This document shows positions 184-25,063 of a DNA stretch of 27,914 bases, piece by piece. The DNA lies in the NCBI GenBank assembly GCA_964373615.1, contig CAYJVP010000001.1, positions 1 to 27,914 of the forward strand, read 5' to 3'. The notes beneath the pieces were generated by a model. That model saw nothing but the letters and a program-made list of their open reading frames with translations. It was not told the DNA's origin and ran no database searches. The stretch's first letter is position 1, and each line of letters begins with the position of its first letter. This DNA is from an uncultured Gammaproteobacteria bacterium (GTDB taxonomy: Bacteria > Patescibacteriota > Patescibacteriia > UBA9934 > GWF2-40-263). Made by a program: the position numbers and the translations under genes.

Positions 184-2118
184 CTAGCGCGCCCGCCGAT
201 GCTCTTCCCACCAGGCGAAGAGATCTTTTGCGATAGGAACGGCCACGGAAGACCCTTCCCCGCCTCGTTCGATGAGGATCGTTATGACAATCTCCGGATC
301 TTCATACGGTCCGAAGCCCGTGAACCACGCGTGGGTTGGTTCGTCGCCGCCTGTTTGCGCGGTTCCCGTTTTTCCCGCAACAGCAAACGGAAGGGCGTTC
401 AGACCCCGCGCGCTTCCCTGCGTGACGGTTTGGCGCATGCCTTCCGAAACAACGGCGATCGCGCGTTTGAGATCATCGGAAAGCTCCACGGACGCATGAG
501 CGGATGCCAACCCATTGACCGCGCGCACGACGGATGGCGCCCACCGTGTCCCGCCGTTTGCAATGGTTGCCGTTCCCACAGCCATCTGAATCGGCGTGAC
601 CAGGATATCCCCCTGTCCAATGGCGAGATGGTATGTGTCGCCCACGTACCACCGCTCGCCTTTGGTTTCCTCTTTCCATTTTTTTGACGGCAGAAATCCA
701 TCTGTCTCGCCGGGGAGATCGATGCCCGTTGGACTCCCAAAGCCGAAGGCGCGAGCGTAGGTGGTGATCCGCTCAACGCCAAGACCTTGAAAATCGTTAT
801 AGCCGCCGCCGATGGTGTAAAAAAAAGTGTTGACAGATTCCGCGATGGCCTTGCGCACGTCTGTGATGCCATGCCCCCCCGGTTTCCAGTCTGGAAAAAA
901 CCAAGGACCGACAGAGATGCCCCCAACGGAGAGAACGGACGTGGTTTCCGAGATGAGACCCTCCGCAAGCGCTGCGGCGGCAACAAACGGCTTAAAGGTT
1001 GAACCGGAAGGAAATTCGCCGGCAATGGCGCGTGGAAAAAGAGGCTCGTTGGGATCGCCAGTAAGATACGCGTAGGTTCGTGTGTCAATCCCCTTCGCAA
1101 AAACGTTGCTATCAAACGCGGGGAGGCTGACGAGGGCGAGGATTTCGCCTGTGCGTGGGTCCATCACGACCGCGCTGGCCTTTTGGGTTCCGGTTATGGC
1201 GAGCGTGTCCAACAATCGTTTCTCCAGCTCGACCTGAAGTTCAAGATCCAGAGAGAGCGTAACATCAGATCCATTGACCGGCGTGGTTTCCGCATAGATC
1301 GTCGTCTCCGCCCCATACGCATCGACCTCGATGAGTTTTTTCCCAGGGGTCCCGCGCAACACACTCTCCAGGCTTTTTTCCACCCCGGCTTTTCCGATTT
1401 CGTCCGTGCGCAGGTACCCCGCATCTCGAAGCATCTCATATTCCTCGACGCTCATTTTTCCCATGTATCCAAGGGTATGGGAAAGCGACGGAGCGCGAGA
1501 ATTGTACTGGCGTTTCGTCAAGATCTCAACGGAAAATCCGGGGAGACGGTATTCCTCAACGAGGGTGATCATCGCGTTCGTGTAGTCAAGATCTTTCTCC
1601 ACCACCACATCCTCACGGGGAGTATTGGCATATTCCTGGAGGAGAAGATCAAGGTCTGTCCGTTGCAAGCCGGCAAGATCCGCGACTCGGTCGAACACAT
1701 CTTGGCGTTGTGTTTCGTCTGTGGGGATGCGCGCGATATGCATGACAAGTGAGAAAGCCGGCACATTTTCAATAAGAATATCTCCAAAACGATCGGTCAC
1801 GGTTCCGCGCGTGGCCGGGATCACCTCGACGCGGAAACGATTTCCTTCGGCGATTTCTCGATAGAAACCACCCGTGAGAAGTTGGAGGTGGGCCGCACGT
1901 GCAACAAAAAGGACCACGACGACGGAGAGGAAGATAAACGCGACCCGAAAGCGTCTCACGGCAACCGTGGGACCCGAAGGGCGCGCCAGGGGCTGTGAGA
2001 GAATTGGGTCCGGATCAAGCAGGGACGCTTCCATGCGTTCCTCGCGATGTCGTGTGGAGAGACGGCCAATTTCATCGGTGAACCGGAAGAGGGGATTTTC
2101 CTTTTTAGAGCGTTTCAT
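184..2118 (-). CDS. mrdA: Penicillin-binding protein 2 (class B transpeptidase)
   Basis: N-terminal TM, PBP dimerisation region (RGTVTDRFG), SxxK (GSTFK), SxN (ESVN), KTG (GKTGT). Start moved to ATG 2118 (MKRSKK), which overlaps the mreD stop. Confidence 0.95.
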   Translation of the reverse strand: MKRSKKENPLFRFTDEIGRLSTRHREERMEASLLDPDPILSQPLARPSGPTVAVRRFRVAFIFLSVVVVLFVARAAHLQLLTGGFYREIAEGNRFRVEVIPATRGTVTDRFGDILIENVPAFSLVMHIARIPTDETQRQDVFDRVADLAGLQRTDLDLLLQEYANTPREDVVVEKDLDYTNAMITLVEEYRLPGFSVEILTKRQYNSRAPSLSHTLGYMGKMSVEEYEMLRDAGYLRTDEIGKAGVEKSLESVLRGTPGKKLIEVDAYGAETTIYAETTPVNGSDVTLSLDLELQVELEKRLLDTLAITGTQKASAVVMDPRTGEILALVSLPAFDSNVFAKGIDTRTYAYLTGDPNEPLFPRAIAGEFPSGSTFKPFVAAAALAEGLISETTSVLSVGGISVGPWFFPDWKPGGHGITDVRKAIAESVNTFFYTIGGGYNDFQGLGVERITTYARAFGFGSPTGIDLPGETDGFLPSKKWKEETKGERWYVGDTYHLAIGQGDILVTPIQMAVGTATIANGGTRWAPSVVRAVNGLASAHASVELSDDLKRAIAVVSEGMRQTVTQGSARGLNALPFAVAGKTGTAQTGGDEPTHAWFTGFGPYEDPEIVITILIERGGEGSSVAVPIAKDLFAWWEEHRRAR

Positions 2119-2641
2119 GGGTCGAGGGGTTGAAAAGGATCGGGCGCAAGGCGCGTCGAATCCGGCCTGACAGGAAGAAAAAAATTGTGATGAGACCAAA
2201 AAGAAGAAGCCCTTGCCAGAGAAGAACATCACGATACACGAGCCACGGGACCGCTTCGAGATTCTTTCTGTTGATCATCGCTAAGCCCAAGATGGTGAGG
2301 AGATGCCACGCTGTCCAGCTTGCAAGCGCGCAAGCGGCCACTCCATAGAGGGATCGGTTCGTAAAAACACGACGCGATACGATCCACGCACCGACGCCCA
2401 CAAAAAGAAGAATGGCCGTCTCTCCGGGGATGACACCAAGCTGCCAGAGATCCAAAAAGAGTCCGTAGCCAACGAGCCAGCCCACACCAACCCGAGACCC
2501 AAAGTGCTGGATGACGTACACCGCGCTCGCAAACACAAGCGGGAGGAAGCGCCAAGGGACTGGCCAGGCGCTCAAAAAGCTTGCCTCAAGGATGTAGAGG
2601 AGAAAAAAGAGAGCGATGGATGTCACAAGACGGAGTGTCAT
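2105..2641 (-). CDS. mreD: Rod shape-determining membrane protein MreD
   Basis: 178 aa, about 5 hydrophobic helices, GLFLDLW motif, lies between mreC and mrdA with overlapping stop/start codons. Confidence 0.75.
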   Translation of the reverse strand: MTLRLVTSIALFFLLYILEASFLSAWPVPWRFLPLVFASAVYVIQHFGSRVGVGWLVGYGLFLDLWQLGVIPGETAILLFVGVGAWIVSRRVFTNRSLYGVAACALASWTAWHLLTILGLAMINRKNLEAVPWLVYRDVLLWQGLLLFGLITIFFFLSGRIRRALRPILFNPSTHETL

Positions 2642-3435
2642 GGAAGGTACGGCACAAGGACAGAGACGATGGATGATTCGGTATGCTCAGCCATCGGTTC
2701 AACGCTCGCCTCCTGAAATGGAGCGGAGCGATCGTCTGTCACCCGATTGACCACACCAATCACGAGGCCTGATGGAATACCCTCTTCGAGCCCAGACGTC
2801 ACCACAAGATTATTAACGTAAACGGCCTCGTCTTGAGGAATAAACCGAAGCGTCAGAAGTGAGCCGCCCGTTCCCTCAACGATTCCGAGCGTCCGCGAGC
2901 TTGTGAGAACAGAAGAGGCTACTTTTGAATGTGGATCCGTCAGGGCCAGAGCCATAGAGGTCACGCGGCCGACCTCAATAATCTTTCCGATCAAGACGCC
3001 GTCCCGCACGATCACGGGAGCGCCAACCCGAACCCCGTCATCGCTTCCGCGATCGAGGATAAATGTCGCGCGAAGAGGATTGCTTGAGCGCATGATCACC
3101 CGGCCGGTCACATGCGTAACTGACTGACGCTCGATAAATCCAAGTTGGGCTTTCACGTCGGCGTTTTCTTGTCGCAGGGCTTCCCATTCAACGCGATCAA
3201 AAGCAAGAGCCGTGAGCTGTTCTTTGAGCCGCGCATTTTCCCCACGAACCGATTCGGGTGCGCGGAAAAATTGGGACCACCACGCGCCGAGCTCAACGCC
3301 CGCCCTCGCAAACGGAGCCAGCACGAAAGGGGAAAAGCGTGGAAAGAAGAAAGAAACGGTGAGGAGAATCGCGGCGATTCCCATCACACCGACAAACATT
3401 TTGAAAACCCGTTGCCACGGAAGCTTTTTTCGCAT
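2638..3435 (-). CDS. mreC: Rod shape-determining protein MreC
   Basis: TM, coiled coil (ENARLKEQL...LRQEN), LDRGSDDGVRVG, VVTSGLEEGIPSGLVIG; follows mreB. Confidence 0.95.
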   Translation of the reverse strand: MRKKLPWQRVFKMFVGVMGIAAILLTVSFFFPRFSPFVLAPFARAGVELGAWWSQFFRAPESVRGENARLKEQLTALAFDRVEWEALRQENADVKAQLGFIERQSVTHVTGRVIMRSSNPLRATFILDRGSDDGVRVGAPVIVRDGVLIGKIIEVGRVTSMALALTDPHSKVASSVLTSSRTLGIVEGTGGSLLTLRFIPQDEAVYVNNLVVTSGLEEGIPSGLVIGVVNRVTDDRSAPFQEASVEPMAEHTESSIVSVLVPYLP

Positions 3436-3474: not shown

Positions 3475-4527
3475 TTAGATGATGCCGCCGTCGCGGGATG
3501 ATGGCAGAGTCACATCTCGAAGCAAAGGTTCGTTGTCAAGAAGCGCTCCCGCGCCACGCACCACACACGTTAAGGGGTCGTCGGCAACGCGCACCGGAAT
3601 CGACGTTTCGGTCGAAAGCAACTTGTCGAATCCCCGCAGGAGAGACCCGCCTCCGGCAAGGACGATGCCGCGTTCATAAATGTCTGCCACGAGCTCAGGC
3701 GGGGTGACCTCGAGGGTTGCCTTTACGTTCTCCACAATGTTGCGAATGGACCGATAGAGCGCTTCGCGGATTTGTGAGTCGTTTACGATGATTTCCTTTG
3801 GTAATCCCGTCAGAAGATCGCGTCCGCGCATCTCCATTTCTAGGGGCTCCTCCAGCCCGGCAGCGCTGCCGATACGGATTTTAACAAGCTCGGCATTGCG
3901 CTCGCCAAGGAGCAGATTGAACACCTCGCGACTGTAGGTCACAATGTTTCGATCGAGTTCGGCGCCAGCCATGGGCAGAGATTTCCAGGTCACAACACCG
4001 GCCAGAGAAATGACCGCGATATCCGTGGTGCCCCCACCCACGTCCACGATCATCGTTCCGATTGATTCCTGCACGGGAAGCCGCGCGCCAATGGCGGCAA
4101 GCATGGGTTCTTCTACCAGGAAGACCTCGCGCGCTCCAGCGGACAAAACAGCGTCCTCGACCGCTTTTCTCTCCACCTCCGTAATTTCAGGAGGAACACC
4201 GATCACGACACGCGGTCGTGGTAAAAAGGTCCGTGATTCCTGATGCACTTTATCAATAAAATATTTGAGCATCTTTTCCGCAACCTCGAAATCAGAAATG
4301 ACGCCCTTGATCAGCGGTTTGATGATCTGTAGATGCGGGGGCGTTTTCCCAAGCATGTCCCGCGCGTCTCGACCAACGGCTAAAATTTGATCCGTGCGTG
4401 TATTGATGGCCACCACGGATGGTTCTTGAATCAAAATTCCCTTGTCTTTGACAAAGACAAGCGTGTTGGCGGTCCCAAGGTCAATGCCCAGGTCTTTCGA
4501 AAACTTTCCAAGGAGGCGGTTTAGCAT
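3475..4527 (-). CDS. mreB: Actin-like rod shape protein MreB
   Basis: GIDLGTANT, EEPMLAAIGA, VDVGGGTTD, LAGGGSLL. Confidence 0.98.
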   Translation of the reverse strand: MLNRLLGKFSKDLGIDLGTANTLVFVKDKGILIQEPSVVAINTRTDQILAVGRDARDMLGKTPPHLQIIKPLIKGVISDFEVAEKMLKYFIDKVHQESRTFLPRPRVVIGVPPEITEVERKAVEDAVLSAGAREVFLVEEPMLAAIGARLPVQESIGTMIVDVGGGTTDIAVISLAGVVTWKSLPMAGAELDRNIVTYSREVFNLLLGERNAELVKIRIGSAAGLEEPLEMEMRGRDLLTGLPKEIIVNDSQIREALYRSIRNIVENVKATLEVTPPELVADIYERGIVLAGGGSLLRGFDKLLSTETSIPVRVADDPLTCVVRGAGALLDNEPLLRDVTLPSSRDGGII

Positions 4528-10840: not shown

Positions 10841-11455
10841 TTAACGTGAGTACAACTCAACGATGAGTGTCGGATCAAAAACCGTTTCAAGGTCTTCCCC
10901 CTCTGCGGCGCTGACCACCTTTCCTGTTTGGGCCGCGGCATCCAGATGAAGCCATGTCGGGGGCTGGGCTCCACTCAGGCGTTCAGACATATTTTTTACG
11001 AGCGTCTTCTCCGTTTTTGTTGCGTGAATGGCTATCTCGTCCCCAACGCTCACGAGCGCAGACGGGATGTTGAGCGTCTTTCCGTTGACCGTAACGAATC
11101 CGTGCGAAACCATCTGGCGGGCCTGACGACGCGTGACCGCAAACCCGAGGCGGTAGACGACATTGTCGAGACGTCTTTCCAAAATTTGCACGAGAAATGT
11201 GGCGGTGTTCCCACGTTTTCTTCGGGCCATCTCAAAATAGTTACGAAACTGGCGTTCCATGATGTTATATAAACGTTTGGCTTTCTGCTTTTCACGAAGT
11301 TGCTTGCCGTAACCTGAAAGTCTGGACGTTCGCGCCGTGGGGCCGTGAACACCCGGCGGGTATGGCCGGCGTTTGACGGCACATTTTTCACGACCACAAA
11401 GGCTCACCCCCTCCCGGCGGCACATTTTGCAGGTGGACATGAGCGTTTTCCCCAT
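10841..11455 (-). CDS. rpsD: 30S ribosomal protein S4 (Cys-containing, Zn-type N-terminus)
   Basis: CKMCRREG...EKC, PPGVHG, YGKQLREKQK, LERRLDNVVYRLG. Confidence 0.99.
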   Translation of the reverse strand: MGKTLMSTCKMCRREGVSLCGREKCAVKRRPYPPGVHGPTARTSRLSGYGKQLREKQKAKRLYNIMERQFRNYFEMARRKRGNTATFLVQILERRLDNVVYRLGFAVTRRQARQMVSHGFVTVNGKTLNIPSALVSVGDEIAIHATKTEKTLVKNMSERLSGAQPPTWLHLDAAAQTGKVVSAAEGEDLETVFDPTLIVELYSR

Positions 11456-22655: not shown

Positions 22656-23688
22656 TTGCGCCGCCGATCATTTCCTCTCCATCATAAAATACAATGGATT
22701 GACCTGGAGTCACCGCACGTTGCGGCTCATCAAATTCGACAGAGATGTCCGCGTCGTCGATTTTTGTCATCGTGCAGGACGCGAGTGGCTGACGATATCG
22801 GATGCGTGCCTGACATCGTGTGCCAGCCACAGGCTCTCGAAACCAGTTGGATTGGCTTCCGGAAAGAATTTTTTGATAGAGCGCCTGATCGTAATTGCTG
22901 GAAACGACAAGCTGGTTTGTGACTGGACGTTTTTCCACGAGGTAGTACGGCGTACCGCCACCGAAGGAGAGACCTTCGCGCTGCCCAACCGTGTAAAACG
23001 CCATGCCCTCGTGGCGGCCGACCACCTCGCCGGACGTTGTGACGACCTCGCCGGGATGTGGAGTGATTCGACTTTTTAGAAATTCCTGAATGTCGACCTC
23101 GCCCACAAAACAGATCCCAACGCTGTCTTTTTTGTCCGCGACCGGAAGCCTGAGCTCTCGCGCTTTTCTCCGAACCTCTGGTTTTGTCATGTGACCCACG
23201 GGAAACAACACACGTGGGAGGACCTCGGGTTTGATCGCCCAGAGAAAATACGTCTGATCTTTATTTTGATCGGTGCCAACAAGAATCCGACCCTCATCCA
23301 TACGGGCGTAATGTCCGGTTGCGATGAAATCACACCCGAGCTTGTCAGCCTGCTTCAAAAAAAGATCAAACTTTACCAGTTTGTTACACATGACATCCGG
23401 ATTCGGCGTACGTCCGATTTCGTACTCGGCGAAAAGATACTCGATGACCTTGTCGCGATACTCCTGTTCGAAATCAAAGGTCAGAAATGGAATCCCAAGT
23501 TGCGCCGCAACGCGCATGGCGTCGCGTCGGTCCGCTCGCCACTCGCAGTTCGACCAATTTTTCATGAACCCGCCGATCACCTCATATCCAGCCTCCAATA
23601 ACAATGCTGCGGAAACGGACGAATCCACCCCGCCGGACATACCCACAAGCACTTTTTGTTTAGAGATGTTCCCGTTTTGCGGCTTCAT
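22645..23688 (-). CDS. mnmA: tRNA-specific 2-thiouridylase MnmA
   Basis: GMSGGVDS, NPDVMCN, ATGHYA, KDQTYFL, DSVGICF, TVGQR, RIRYRQ, AVTPGQ. Start taken as ATG 23688 (ATG 23697 possible). Confidence 0.97.
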   Translation of the reverse strand: MKPQNGNISKQKVLVGMSGGVDSSVSAALLLEAGYEVIGGFMKNWSNCEWRADRRDAMRVAAQLGIPFLTFDFEQEYRDKVIEYLFAEYEIGRTPNPDVMCNKLVKFDLFLKQADKLGCDFIATGHYARMDEGRILVGTDQNKDQTYFLWAIKPEVLPRVLFPVGHMTKPEVRRKARELRLPVADKKDSVGICFVGEVDIQEFLKSRITPHPGEVVTTSGEVVGRHEGMAFYTVGQREGLSFGGGTPYYLVEKRPVTNQLVVSSNYDQALYQKILSGSQSNWFREPVAGTRCQARIRYRQPLASCTMTKIDDADISVEFDEPQRAVTPGQSIVFYDGEEMIGGAIID

Positions 23689-25063
23689 AAAACGCATCCG
23701 CGTCTTCACGATACACAAAAAAATCCGTGAACTGCAGCTTCTCATTATACTTTTGCAGCAAGTCAGAATACTGAAAGATCGGAATGTAGTCAACCGCACA
23801 CACATTCTTTTTGGCAACGTAGATCATCGCTGATGCGGCAGAACCCTCACCAAGGTGCGTGAGTTCCTTTTCTGAAGCATGGGTGAAATAACGGATCTTG
23901 CAACGATCGCAAAACGCGCAGAGCTCCTCAAGCCGTTGACGGTCTGCAGATCGCGCTGTGTGTAGTCGAAGAATGCGCTTTGCTGGAATCCGACGCATGA
24001 GATGGTGAGACCAGTAATTTTTTTCCTCTTTCGACGCCGCAAACAACATCTCGATCACCTTTCCATCTCGAAGTTCCGTATAGGCAAACGGATCGGTCGG
24101 AATCACGAGGGGAACTTCATGCGTTCGAATGGCCTCCTCAAGATAATGGGCAAACCCTGTTTTGGTTTTGTGAAAATACACCTGATCGATCATGTGATAG
24201 CGAGCAAGCAGGAGATCCTCGAAGGCGCGCACGCCGTTTTCAGAAATTGTAAACACGAGAGGACGTTGCCCTTCGACAAGCTCAGGACCTTCAGCCACCC
24301 CCATGCTTGAGATCAGCCAATCCAGATCGTATTGTCCATAGGCAACCCCGCAGTAGTAACTATCGCGCAACAGATAATCCATGCGATCACAATCAACCTC
24401 GCCTGAAACAAGCGCTTTCAAGATTTTCTGAAGCGTGGGCGCCTTTTTTTCAATGGCGGCGAAGGCGGCAGATGGTTTTACCCCCTCGTGCACGAGAGAG
24501 GCGACATCCTGGGCAAAATCGCGATCGAGCACCCCTTGTTCGGCGAGCGACTGGATGAGAAGAACGCTGTAATCTTCGTGCTTGGCCTGACGCGTGTCGT
24601 TCCCTCCCCTGCCTGAGGGGAGGTTAGCCCGCCCGAACGACCGACGTTCGGTCGGGCGGGGAGGGGTGGGAGTTTCGCGCCACCACTCCCACTTGAGCGG
24701 CAAGCTCGACAGAGGAGGAAACACAACCTCGGACGCATGCGAAAAGGGGCCGTGCCCGATATCGTGAAGAAGACCGGCAAGGCGAAGGCGGCGGCGAAGC
24801 GATTCGATCTCTTCGCCTGTGAGACGGCTCACAAGAACGTCCGAGCTTGCAATAAATCTTCCGAACAATCGCCCCGCCACATGCATGGCGCCGAGCCCAT
24901 GCGTAAAACGGTCGTGCATCCCACCTGGATACACATACGTTTGCAGGAACGAGAGCTGGGCGATAAATCTCAAACGCTGAAAAAACGTGTGGTCAATGAC
25001 CGTCCGCTCAAATTCATCAAAGGGGATGCGTTTGTGAATGGGATCGCGGAGTTCGTATTCCAT
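23660..25063 (-). CDS. HD-domain metal-dependent phosphohydrolase (SAMHD1-like dNTPase family) with apparent repeat-derived insertions
   Basis: RDPIH, FQRLRFIAQL, HDRFTHGLG, LLHDIGHGPFSH, HE, DCDRMDYLLRD, VYFHK. Start moved to ATG 25063. Confidence 0.92.
   Translation of the reverse strand: MEYELRDPIHKRIPFDEFERTVIDHTFFQRLRFIAQLSFLQTYVYPGGMHDRFTHGLGAMHVAGRLFGRFIASSDVLVSRLTGEEIESLRRRLRLAGLLHDIGHGPFSHASEVVFPPLSSLPLKWEWWRETPTPPRPTERRSFGRANLPSGRGGNDTRQAKHEDYSVLLIQSLAEQGVLDRDFAQDVASLVHEGVKPSAAFAAIEKKAPTLQKILKALVSGEVDCDRMDYLLRDSYYCGVAYGQYDLDWLISSMGVAEGPELVEGQRPLVFTISENGVRAFEDLLLARYHMIDQVYFHKTKTGFAHYLEEAIRTHEVPLVIPTDPFAYTELRDGKVIEMLFAASKEEKNYWSHHLMRRIPAKRILRLHTARSADRQRLEELCAFCDRCKIRYFTHASEKELTHLGEGSAASAMIYVAKKNVCAVDYIPIFQYSDLLQKYNEKLQFTDFFVYREDADAFYEAAKREHL
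24269..24289. repeat. cccttcgacaagctcagg-type repeat arm inside the HD gene (encodes GPELVEG)
   Basis: Shares cccttcgac...gctcagg with the intergenic copy at 123-152. Confidence 0.7.
24601..24669. repeat. Composite palindromic repeat inside the HD gene
   Basis: Hairpin cctcccct 24603-24610 / aggggagg 24616-24623, plus a 33-bp element cccgcccga...tcgggcggg at 24628-24660 whose 9-nt left arm is identical to window positions 1-9. Confidence 0.85.

Follow-up and report, generated by a model that had tools for sequence, protein, structure and literature searches.

A REP-like palindrome nested in a triplex-type motif, in frame within essential genes of a Candidatus Uhrbacteria genome

Intrastrand triplex motifs of the BoxC/PIT/TMECO type have been found in Escherichia coli and in more than 260 other bacterial genomes (Holder et al., 2015, PMC4666352). 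In E. coli MG1655, TMECO motifs are "always located intergenically", and their strict consensus is CCCTCNCCC-N3-6-GGGNGAGGG-N3-GGGNGAGGG (PMC4666352). Palindromic repeats that are read in frame are known from Rickettsia, where Rickettsia palindromic elements (RPEs) are inserted into unrelated housekeeping genes without loss of the frame (Ogata et al., 2000, as summarised in PMC10969869), and occasionally from Coxiella and other bacteria (PMC10969869; PMC5896051). In Coxiella burnetii, IS1111 inserts into the GTAG REP of QMITE2 (PMC5896051). No paper on such repeats was found for the Candidate Phyla Radiation (CPR), Patescibacteria or Uhrbacteria. In this study, a 27,914-nucleotide stretch of DNA, herein referred to as the window, was analyzed. 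The window is contig C1 of a groundwater genome of Candidatus Uhrbacteria (CPR), referred to as G000 (0.90 Mb, 87 contigs, 55% G+C). It contains a gene for an HD-domain phosphohydrolase (the HD gene) with a 72-bp insert composed of two repeats, one inside the other: an outer triplex-type motif (family A) and an inner REP-like palindrome (family B). A third small palindromic repeat is referred to as the shell.

The insert encodes the peptide PTPPRPTERRSFGRANLPSGRGGN (residues 133-156; the insert-derived string in the protein is ETPTPPRPTERRSFGR) between the GHGPFSH and HEDYS motifs. A search for the HD gene in 40 related genomes returned 17 full-length orthologues with 58-75% identity. In 13 of the 17 the site is empty, with WW(K)xxP joined directly to (D)RQA(K)HEDYS, and the G000 gene is 24 codons longer than these. 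The original prediction, made from the letters of the window, had described a Pro/Arg/Gly-rich loop between the FSH and HE motifs, encoded by two adjacent hairpins, and had expected orthologues with a shorter, empty site; the position of the peptide, the fold of its DNA and the alignment bear this out. The DNA of positions 24603-24660 folds into two adjacent hairpins with an energy of -30.3 kcal/mol (as DNA), compared with -19.8 +/- 2.7 in 200 shuffled sequences (z -3.95), none of which had an equally stable fold. In an AlphaFold2 model of the protein, built on an 18-sequence alignment (overall predicted local distance difference test score, pLDDT, 80; predicted template modelling score 0.81), residues 133-155, located between helices 125-128 and 162-175, are modelled as coil, and their pLDDT is below 50. 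The 24-residue Pro/Arg/Gly loop is predicted to be disordered.

Removal of the inner 33-mer (Table 1) restores ACCCCTC|CTAACCTCCCCTCAGGCAGGGGAGG, as had been foreseen, and this is the sequence of solo repeat copies in G000 and its relatives. On the coding strand the HD site without the 33-mer reads GAAACTCCCACCCCTC|CTAACCTCCCCTCAGGCAGGGGAGGGAAC and is 39 bp longer than the empty site. On the plus strand the outer motif reads CCCTCCCC-TGCCTGA-GGGGAGG-TTA-GGAGGGG, the general layout is CCCTCCCC-N7-GGGGAGG-TTA-GGAGGGG, and the consensus of the purine strand is CCTCCCC-N7-GGGGAGG-TTA-GGAGGGG. The restored element had been taken for a single stem-loop. It is indeed a repeat unit, but in place of a plain stem-loop it has a three-block structure with one pyrimidine block and two mirror-image purine blocks.

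Family A is found as solo copies in several genomes. The 5' piece of the outer repeat is contiguous with CTAACC in these copies and in the HD orthologue of genome G018. The pattern CTAACC-N0-3-CCCC-N3-12-GGGG was found at 5 loci in G000, about 10 in G018 and 4-5 in G006; no loci were found in G020 and G024, and none with a reversed control pattern. Solo copies with the architecture of the HD copy were found in G000 (contig C79), G018 (about 10 loci) and G006 (4 loci), and their alignment is sharp: (T)AACCCC(T/C)C-CTAACC-(T/C)CCCC-loop7-GGGG(A/G)GG-AA. At least eight of the nine solo copies examined in G018 are in frame within conserved genes. The hosts are LepA (two copies), PheT, LigA, a prepilin peptidase, a kinase, an ATP-grasp protein and an SMC-like protein. 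The corresponding sites of G000 lack an insert. Depending on orientation, the element is translated as TPPNPPLKRGGT or as PPLFKGGLGGV. The stem differs by genome: CCTCCCC/GGGGAGG in G000 and G006, CCCCCCC/GGGGGGG in G018, and CCAACA/TGTTGG in G024.

By its sequence architecture, family A is assigned to the known, bacteria-wide BoxC/PIT/TMECO repeat type and is not a new tiny element. The common features are the order of pyrimidine block, loop, purine block, TTA loop and mirror-image purine block ("type A"), a length of about 37-39 nt, a G/C-rich composition, many copies per genome, and no known function or mobiliser. Three features set family A apart. Its blocks are 7-8 nt long instead of 9, with a loop 1 of 7 nt, and do not fit the strict consensus; it is located in frame in essential genes (HD, DnaX and DHFR, as well as the G018 genes) rather than intergenically; and its second loop holds another repeat.

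This other repeat, family B, is represented twice by the same 33-mer. An identical copy was found in dnaX (contig C50), where the flanks are also identical to those in HD (16 and 25 nt) and the 15-nt core is reverse-complemented. In total, 13 units bounded by CCCGCCCGA...TCGGGCGGG were found in G000, compared with 2 for a reversed control pattern; the recurrence of the arms in the genome is thereby confirmed, as is the identity of the first 9 bases of the 33-mer with positions 1-9 of the window. GC-rich 8-bp hairpins number 227 in G000 and 48-70 in shuffled genomes. Related arms, CCGCCCGAACGACCGAAC...GTTCGGTCGTTCGGGCGG, were found in G006, G014, G020, G026, G031 and G033, which represent six other genera and also other families of the order, and family-B arms of 13-14 nt are conserved across genera. 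G018 has no intact family-B palindrome, only one decayed B-like copy in its DHFR gene. Units without nested modules are 32-46 nt long. Family B is also found outside the outer motif: in the shell repeat of Dus and TatD (GACCCTTCGACA^GGGCTCAGGGTC), at C15/C20, and in the riboflavin synthase gene of G006.

The ends of the 33-mer were also seen in the source metagenome runs, which were examined as assembled contigs only. Summed contig depth over 24628-24660 is about 10 times that of the flanks, and contigs with many unrelated, often AT-rich flanks break at 24627/24628 and 24660/24661. Because these contigs stop precisely at both boundaries, the 33-mer is a discrete unit with the proposed ends. 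A 30-nt variant of it is common in the same metagenomes.

Family B resembles the REP, BIME and REPIN repeats (PMC3116915; PMC3733652) in being an imperfect GC-rich palindrome of 30-46 nt with conserved arms and a variable loop, arranged in mosaics as in BIMEs. It differs from them in being often intragenic (8 B-bounded units in reading frames) and in having no GTAG or CGTC tag (PMC3733652), since its units start with CCCGCCCGA. The TTAG found beside some copies is part of the outer motif and is missing in other contexts. Miniature inverted-repeat transposable elements of DDE transposons share inverted termini with family B, but family B has no target-site duplication. None was found around the 33-mer; when the 33-mer is taken out, the junction is exactly that of the solo copies, apart from an ambiguity of 1 nt.

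Family-B or B-like units occupy a fixed point of the triplex-type motif, CCCCTC^CTAACC, which lies between the TTA loop and the third block (1-nt ambiguity), in 5-7 of about 13 motif copies of G000. The point is occupied in the motif copies of HD, dnaX, DHFR, C44 and C47 and in decayed forms at C44:6015 and C11:12255. Solo copies are located on C79, C14, C29 and C12. In G018 and G006, none of the 14 solo copies has an inner unit, and all 14 share the clean junction. Motif-borne family-B copies in G000, as well as the units in G006, G031 and G033, have a left flank that ends with CTC; the flank differs in Dus, TatD, C15, C21 and C61.

The outer parts of the composites stay alike while the inner units vary both in size and in their enclosed modules. 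The inner unit is the 33-mer in HD and dnaX, 46 bp long in C47, 57 bp in DHFR and 59 bp in C44, where it consists of a 21-bp and a 38-bp palindrome. One family-B variant (loop ACAGGGCGCGAGTT) was found in two different motif types, C44 and C47, in opposite orientations. The family-B arms of DHFR match those of the C15/C20 unit, which is located outside any motif. Because inner and outer variants are discordant in this way, repeated, orientation-free placement of family B into structured repeats is favoured over movement of a fixed composite. Nesting reaches three levels in the DHFR gene (L027, G000:C28, positions 3791-3900), where a triplex motif contains a family-B palindrome that in turn contains a CCGCCAG..CTGGC module, all in frame. 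In the PolA frame (L023, G000:C56, positions 3591-3780), the ATG is followed by 63 codons made wholly of nested GC-rich repeats and then by the conserved LILDGNALLHRAWHA that starts the 5'-3' exonuclease domain. These repeats consist of a triplex-type motif whose loop 1 is occupied by a 33-bp unit and whose loop 2 holds one of 66 bp.

All eight B-bounded units within reading frames have lengths divisible by three (3n): 33, 33, 57, 36, 96, 66, 33 and 33 bp. The probability of this by chance is (1/3)^8. The non-coding units have mixed lengths of 38, 46, 89, 35, 32 and 35 bp, plus 36 and 102 bp, so the enrichment of 3n lengths expected among coding copies was found. The coding units include five in conserved genes (HD, DnaX, DHFR, Dus and TatD) and two in the N-terminal extension of PolA; families A and B are also read in frame outside the HD gene. 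In HD, the outer layer of 39 bp and the inner layer of 33 bp are each 3n, as stepwise insertion into an essential gene requires. The 33-mer, as read from its sequence, has no stop codon in any of the six frames, and the outer unit has none in the frames used. Family-B arms are read as PRP, PPPE or PAR in different genes. Since the arms are read in differing frames among genes, the DNA rather than the peptide is conserved.

The HD site has a varied history in the relatives. The G018 HD orthologue carries the outer element alone at the same codon, AAACTCCCACCCCCC|CTAACCCCCCCTCGGGCAGGGGGGG, without the 33-mer and with G018's own stem variant (AAACTCCCACCCCCCCTAACCCCCCCTCGGGCAGGGGGGG). The predicted intermediate, with the outer layer only, exists in this gene. 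At the HD site of G006 there is a decayed outer element with a shell palindrome at the inner position, and at that of G024 only an 18-bp hairpin with the same loop. The four insert bearers do not group on the HD tree, a single-gene protein tree computed with the insert columns removed, in which several internal nodes are weak. Approximately unbiased (AU) tests reject a sister relationship of G000 and G018 (p 5e-6) and a grouping of all four bearers (p 4e-24). A single ancient insertion is thereby rejected in its simple form, which leaves many precise losses as a possibility. With moderate confidence, given a tree of one gene, either several separate insertions struck the HD codon or an old insert disappeared precisely on many occasions.

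Other loci were also compared. The dnaX and DHFR inserts are missing from the nearest relative, G020, and from others; the DHFR site is empty in G020, G006 and G024. The insert site of Dus is variable: the gene is shorter there in G001, G018 and G024, and G020 and G006 have their own inserts. The DHFR gene of G018 (L151, G018:C3) contains a decayed composite of outer and inner repeats at the same site as in G000. Because the HD 33-mer is identical to the dnaX copy and copies share the stem variant of their own genome, the sequences point to recent spread or homogenisation within genomes.

Compared with RPEs, the G000 repeats share the location of palindromic repeats in frame in housekeeping genes of a reduced genome, translation as surface segments, and empty orthologues. 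RPEs are about 100-150 bp long, whereas each unit in G000 is 33-39 bp, so by unit size the G000 repeats are an analogue of RPEs and not members of that family. The phylum is different, and the sequences are probably unrelated. PMC10969869 does not mention nesting of one family in another. The pair of IS1111 and QMITE2 provides a likeness in that one repeat family is the specific landing site of another mobile element. In Coxiella the incomer is a full insertion sequence with a transposase and the sites are mostly non-coding, while in G000 it is a gene-less 33-bp palindrome in a reading frame. What is new is the nesting: within essential genes, an independent REP-like family occupies a fixed point of a triplex motif, in either orientation and through as many as three levels, and each layer is frame-neutral.

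These data can be read as follows. The HD loop would stem from hairpin-forming, selfish repeats in two layers, through which the ribosome reads. A 39-bp copy of the BoxC/PIT/TMECO type would have landed in a surface loop of the HD gene, and a 33-bp family-B palindrome would later have been placed in that copy, exactly between loop 2 (TTA) and the third block. Because both units are 3n and stop-free in the frames used, every step would leave a working gene, and the protein would gain a disordered Pro/Arg/Gly loop, presumably one whose peptide has no selected function. Family B may be pasted into single-stranded loops of structured DNA, such as loop 2 of the triplex motif and hairpin apices. The likely agent would be an HUH/RAYT-like enzyme specific for single strands, or else template switching where such structures stall the fork; both fit because target duplications are absent and the units sit in loops of structures. 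This nested, stepwise reading is well supported and, in our judgement, probable. Of the two successive insertions proposed originally, the second into the first, the two independent families, the fixed point of interruption and the G018 intermediate stand; the order, outer before inner, is suggested by them.

A search was made for a mobiliser. Four paralogous RAYT-like genes of about 226 aa, of the Y1 (HUH) type, were found in G000: C15:9255-9935 (L035), C44:6318-6995 (L032), C33:212-901 (L040) and C10:12957-13634 (L038). Their best NCBIfam match is the REP-associated tyrosine transposase (REP_Tyr_transpos), with 29-39 bits against a cut-off of 80, and a PDB sequence search with the RAYT-like protein gave no match. 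Each gene is bracketed on both sides by its own 19-27-nt hairpin, different for each gene (Table 1) and mostly non-coding, an arrangement also found around RAYT-like homologues in at least eight related genomes. Since RAYT-like genes are bracketed by cognate hairpins in G000 and its relatives, as in known REP-RAYT pairs, REP-RAYT-like systems are present and diverse in this group. Three of the four genes adjoin assembly gaps or contig ends.

No IS110/IS1111-type transposase (PF01548) was found in G000. The genes between two identical family-B copies in G006 are ordinary housekeeping genes without a nuclease. A TnpB-like mobiliser was also considered: the only candidate in G000 is a 521-aa frame on the minus strand (L155, G000:C9, positions 1444-3006), which may be TnpB-like. 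It has a weak match to the Cas12f/TnpB zinc ribbon (21.7 bits; cut-off 26.3), below the Pfam cut-off for the protein alone, and was rejected. Genes for DUF559 nucleases are bracketed by triplex-type repeats in the relatives: L178 and L180 in G018, L177 and L181 in G006, L179 in G024 and L176 in G001. The flanking repeat there is TAACCACCCCTAACCCCTCC-TTGAAAA-GGAGGGG. A mobiliser as originally proposed, a RAYT/IS200-like HUH transposase or a DUF559 nuclease flanked by these repeats, could not be tied to either family in G000: RAYT-like genes exist, but with other hairpins around them and a protein score below the cut-off, and G000 has no DUF559 gene.

Other explanations of the composite were weighed against stepwise insertion. 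The composite could be the original full-length element, moved in one piece, with the solo outer copies in G018, G006 and on C79 of G000 being internal-deletion derivatives that were amplified later. Palindromes are prone to deletion. The HD and dnaX composites have identical flanks and the same 33-mer, as this explanation would predict, and the decayed composite at the shared DHFR site of G018 would make composites old. We regard it as unlikely all the same, because inner units differ in length and modules (the 33-mer, 57 bp, and 59 bp made of 21 and 38) while the outer parts are alike, the C44 and C47 pair puts one inner variant into two outer types in both orientations, the same clean junction is present in all 14 solo copies, and the inner family is found in several contexts without the outer element, including G020, where the outer pattern was not detected. 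A somewhat better case, which we rate as a tentative possibility, can be made for the absence of any dedicated transposase. The outer repeat would stall replication and the gap would be filled by template switching or gene conversion that copies the palindrome, nesting being a by-product of structure-induced instability. Polymerase stalling at TMECO motifs has been observed in vitro, and in E. coli the motifs have been associated with local instability of the genome (PMC4666352). The insertions in G000 sit in loops of existing structures (loop 2 of the motif, and the shell hairpin apex in Dus and TatD), leave no target-site duplication, and have no cognate enzyme found in G000 for either family. 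Sharp, constant unit ends in many unrelated contexts and genomes are, on the other hand, more typical of enzyme-defined cleavage, and 13-14-nt arms conserved across genera suggest recognition by a protein.

Selection could also have kept the loop or the mRNA hairpins for a function, as a regulatory or interaction loop or as a translational pause. Stem pairing is kept by compensatory changes between genomes (the G000/G006, G018 and G024 variants), and the HD site is occupied in four non-sister lineages. Set against this, translation of the same DNA in several frames and from either strand gives unrelated peptides in different genes (TPPNPPLKRGGT and PPLFKGGLGGV; PRP.., PPPE.. and PAR..), the loop is predicted to be disordered, most orthologues lack the insert, and stem variants common to all copies of a genome fit recent spread or gene conversion better than site-by-site selection, which makes a function of this kind very improbable. 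An assembly or binning artefact, with a repeat misjoined into the HD gene, might be suspected in a genome as fragmented as G000, since its contigs end in these repeats. The insert is no assembly error, because positions 24440-24718 recur without any mismatch in a contig from a different public run; with the reading frame intact and related inserts at the same codon in three other genomes (G018, G006 and G024), an artefact is close to inconceivable.

Several observations weigh against the nested, stepwise reading. Some composites are old, as in the DHFR gene of G018, and it is conceivable that solo copies arose by deletion. The flipped core could come from inversion between the 9-nt arms instead of separate insertions. 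The repeated history of the HD codon is read from a single-gene tree with several weak internal nodes, which limits it to moderate confidence. None of the four RAYT-like genes, tried as a mobiliser of family A or B, is flanked by either family; the presence of Y1 genes does not track family B over 41 genomes; and no DUF559 nuclease gene (PF04480) was found in G000 or G020. An allele without the 33-mer was not seen among the assembled metagenome contigs, which are uninformative on polymorphism.

The original prediction had spoken of an active, palindrome-targeting mobility system. The nesting of repeats holds, and identical copies together with the distribution on the tree are what would suggest activity. 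A still-active system based on single-stranded DNA may drop frame-neutral (3n, stop-free) palindromes into exposed loops of structured DNA in Uhrbacteria and so build "Russian-doll" repeats in essential genes, although we consider this doubtful at present. If it were true, the same codon would be repeatedly hit, or precisely left, in different lineages, and new surface loops would continuously be added to proteins. The BoxC/triplex repeats, orphans for 30 years, would gain a defined interaction partner.

BoxC/triplex motifs and REP-like palindromes, treated as intergenic oddities of unknown origin, can be translated inside essential genes. The fixed landing point provides a testable handle on the movement of gene-less repeats, through recognition of single-stranded loops. 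For tiny genomes, such repeats are a route to new protein segments. For annotation, Pro/Arg/Gly-rich loops in CPR proteins can be repeat DNA and not lineage-specific functional insertions.

Table 1. Features of the window (positions in nt) and hairpins that bracket the RAYT-like genes of G000 (by contig).
Feature	Location	Strand	Description
HD-domain phosphohydrolase gene	23663..25063	minus	467 aa; open reading frame and translation; Pfam HD and HD_assoc_2
Outer repeat, 5' piece on coding strand	24661..24676	minus	GAAACTCCCACCCCTC; on plus strand, third purine block GGAGGGG and tail; identical in dnaX
Inner 33-bp (11-codon) REP-like palindrome	24628..24660	unassigned	CCCGCCCGAACGACCGACGTTCGGTCGGGCGGG; 9-nt perfect inverted termini CCCGCCCGA/TCGGGCGGG, asymmetric 15-nt core
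Outer repeat, 3' piece on coding strand	24599..24627	minus	CTAACC, hairpin CCTCCCC-TCAGGCA-GGGGAGG, GAAC; on plus strand, pyrimidine block, loop 1, first purine block, loop 2 (TTA)
Second in-frame HD insert, 18 bp (GPELVE)	24269..24286	minus	solo shell palindrome CCCTTCGAC..GCTCAGG
89-bp unit with family-B termini, contig start	1..89	unassigned	encloses two modules, CCCGGCAGCTGCCGGG and CCGCCAG..CTGGCGG
RAYT-like gene flanking hairpin	C15		GGTTCCGGAGTCCGGAACC
RAYT-like gene flanking hairpin	C44		CTGGCCCGGCTCGAGGAGCCGGGCCAG
RAYT-like gene flanking hairpin	C33		GGTGGCAACTTAGTTGCC
RAYT-like gene flanking hairpin	C10		TACCGTCACTAAGTGACGGTA

The GPELVE insert is missing from all 17 other HD orthologues. 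Its shell repeat recurs at positions 123-152 of the window and encloses the family-B palindrome in Dus and TatD. The right half of the shell repeat (TGTCGAAAG) follows the 89-bp unit at the contig start. Contigs of G000 tend to end within these repeats, as at the start of C1 and also at C71:41.

Family-B units were also found next to tRNA-like sequences. In G033 (L044, G033:C9), two identical units at 1642-1682 and 1952-1992, 310 bp apart, are each flanked on both sides by sequence similar to the 5' portion of a tRNA (GCGCCCGTAGCTCAGTTGGATA | GAGCGTCAGG). A tRNA interrupted by the unit was considered there and rejected, since ARAGORN finds no tRNA with the unit kept or removed. In G000 (L034, G000:C21, positions 11082-11253), a 102-bp family-B cluster adjoins the 5' end of tRNA-Gly(TCC). 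The first five bases of this cluster, CCCGC, double as the 5' acceptor bases of the tRNA, and the opposite end of the cluster has a second CCCGC.

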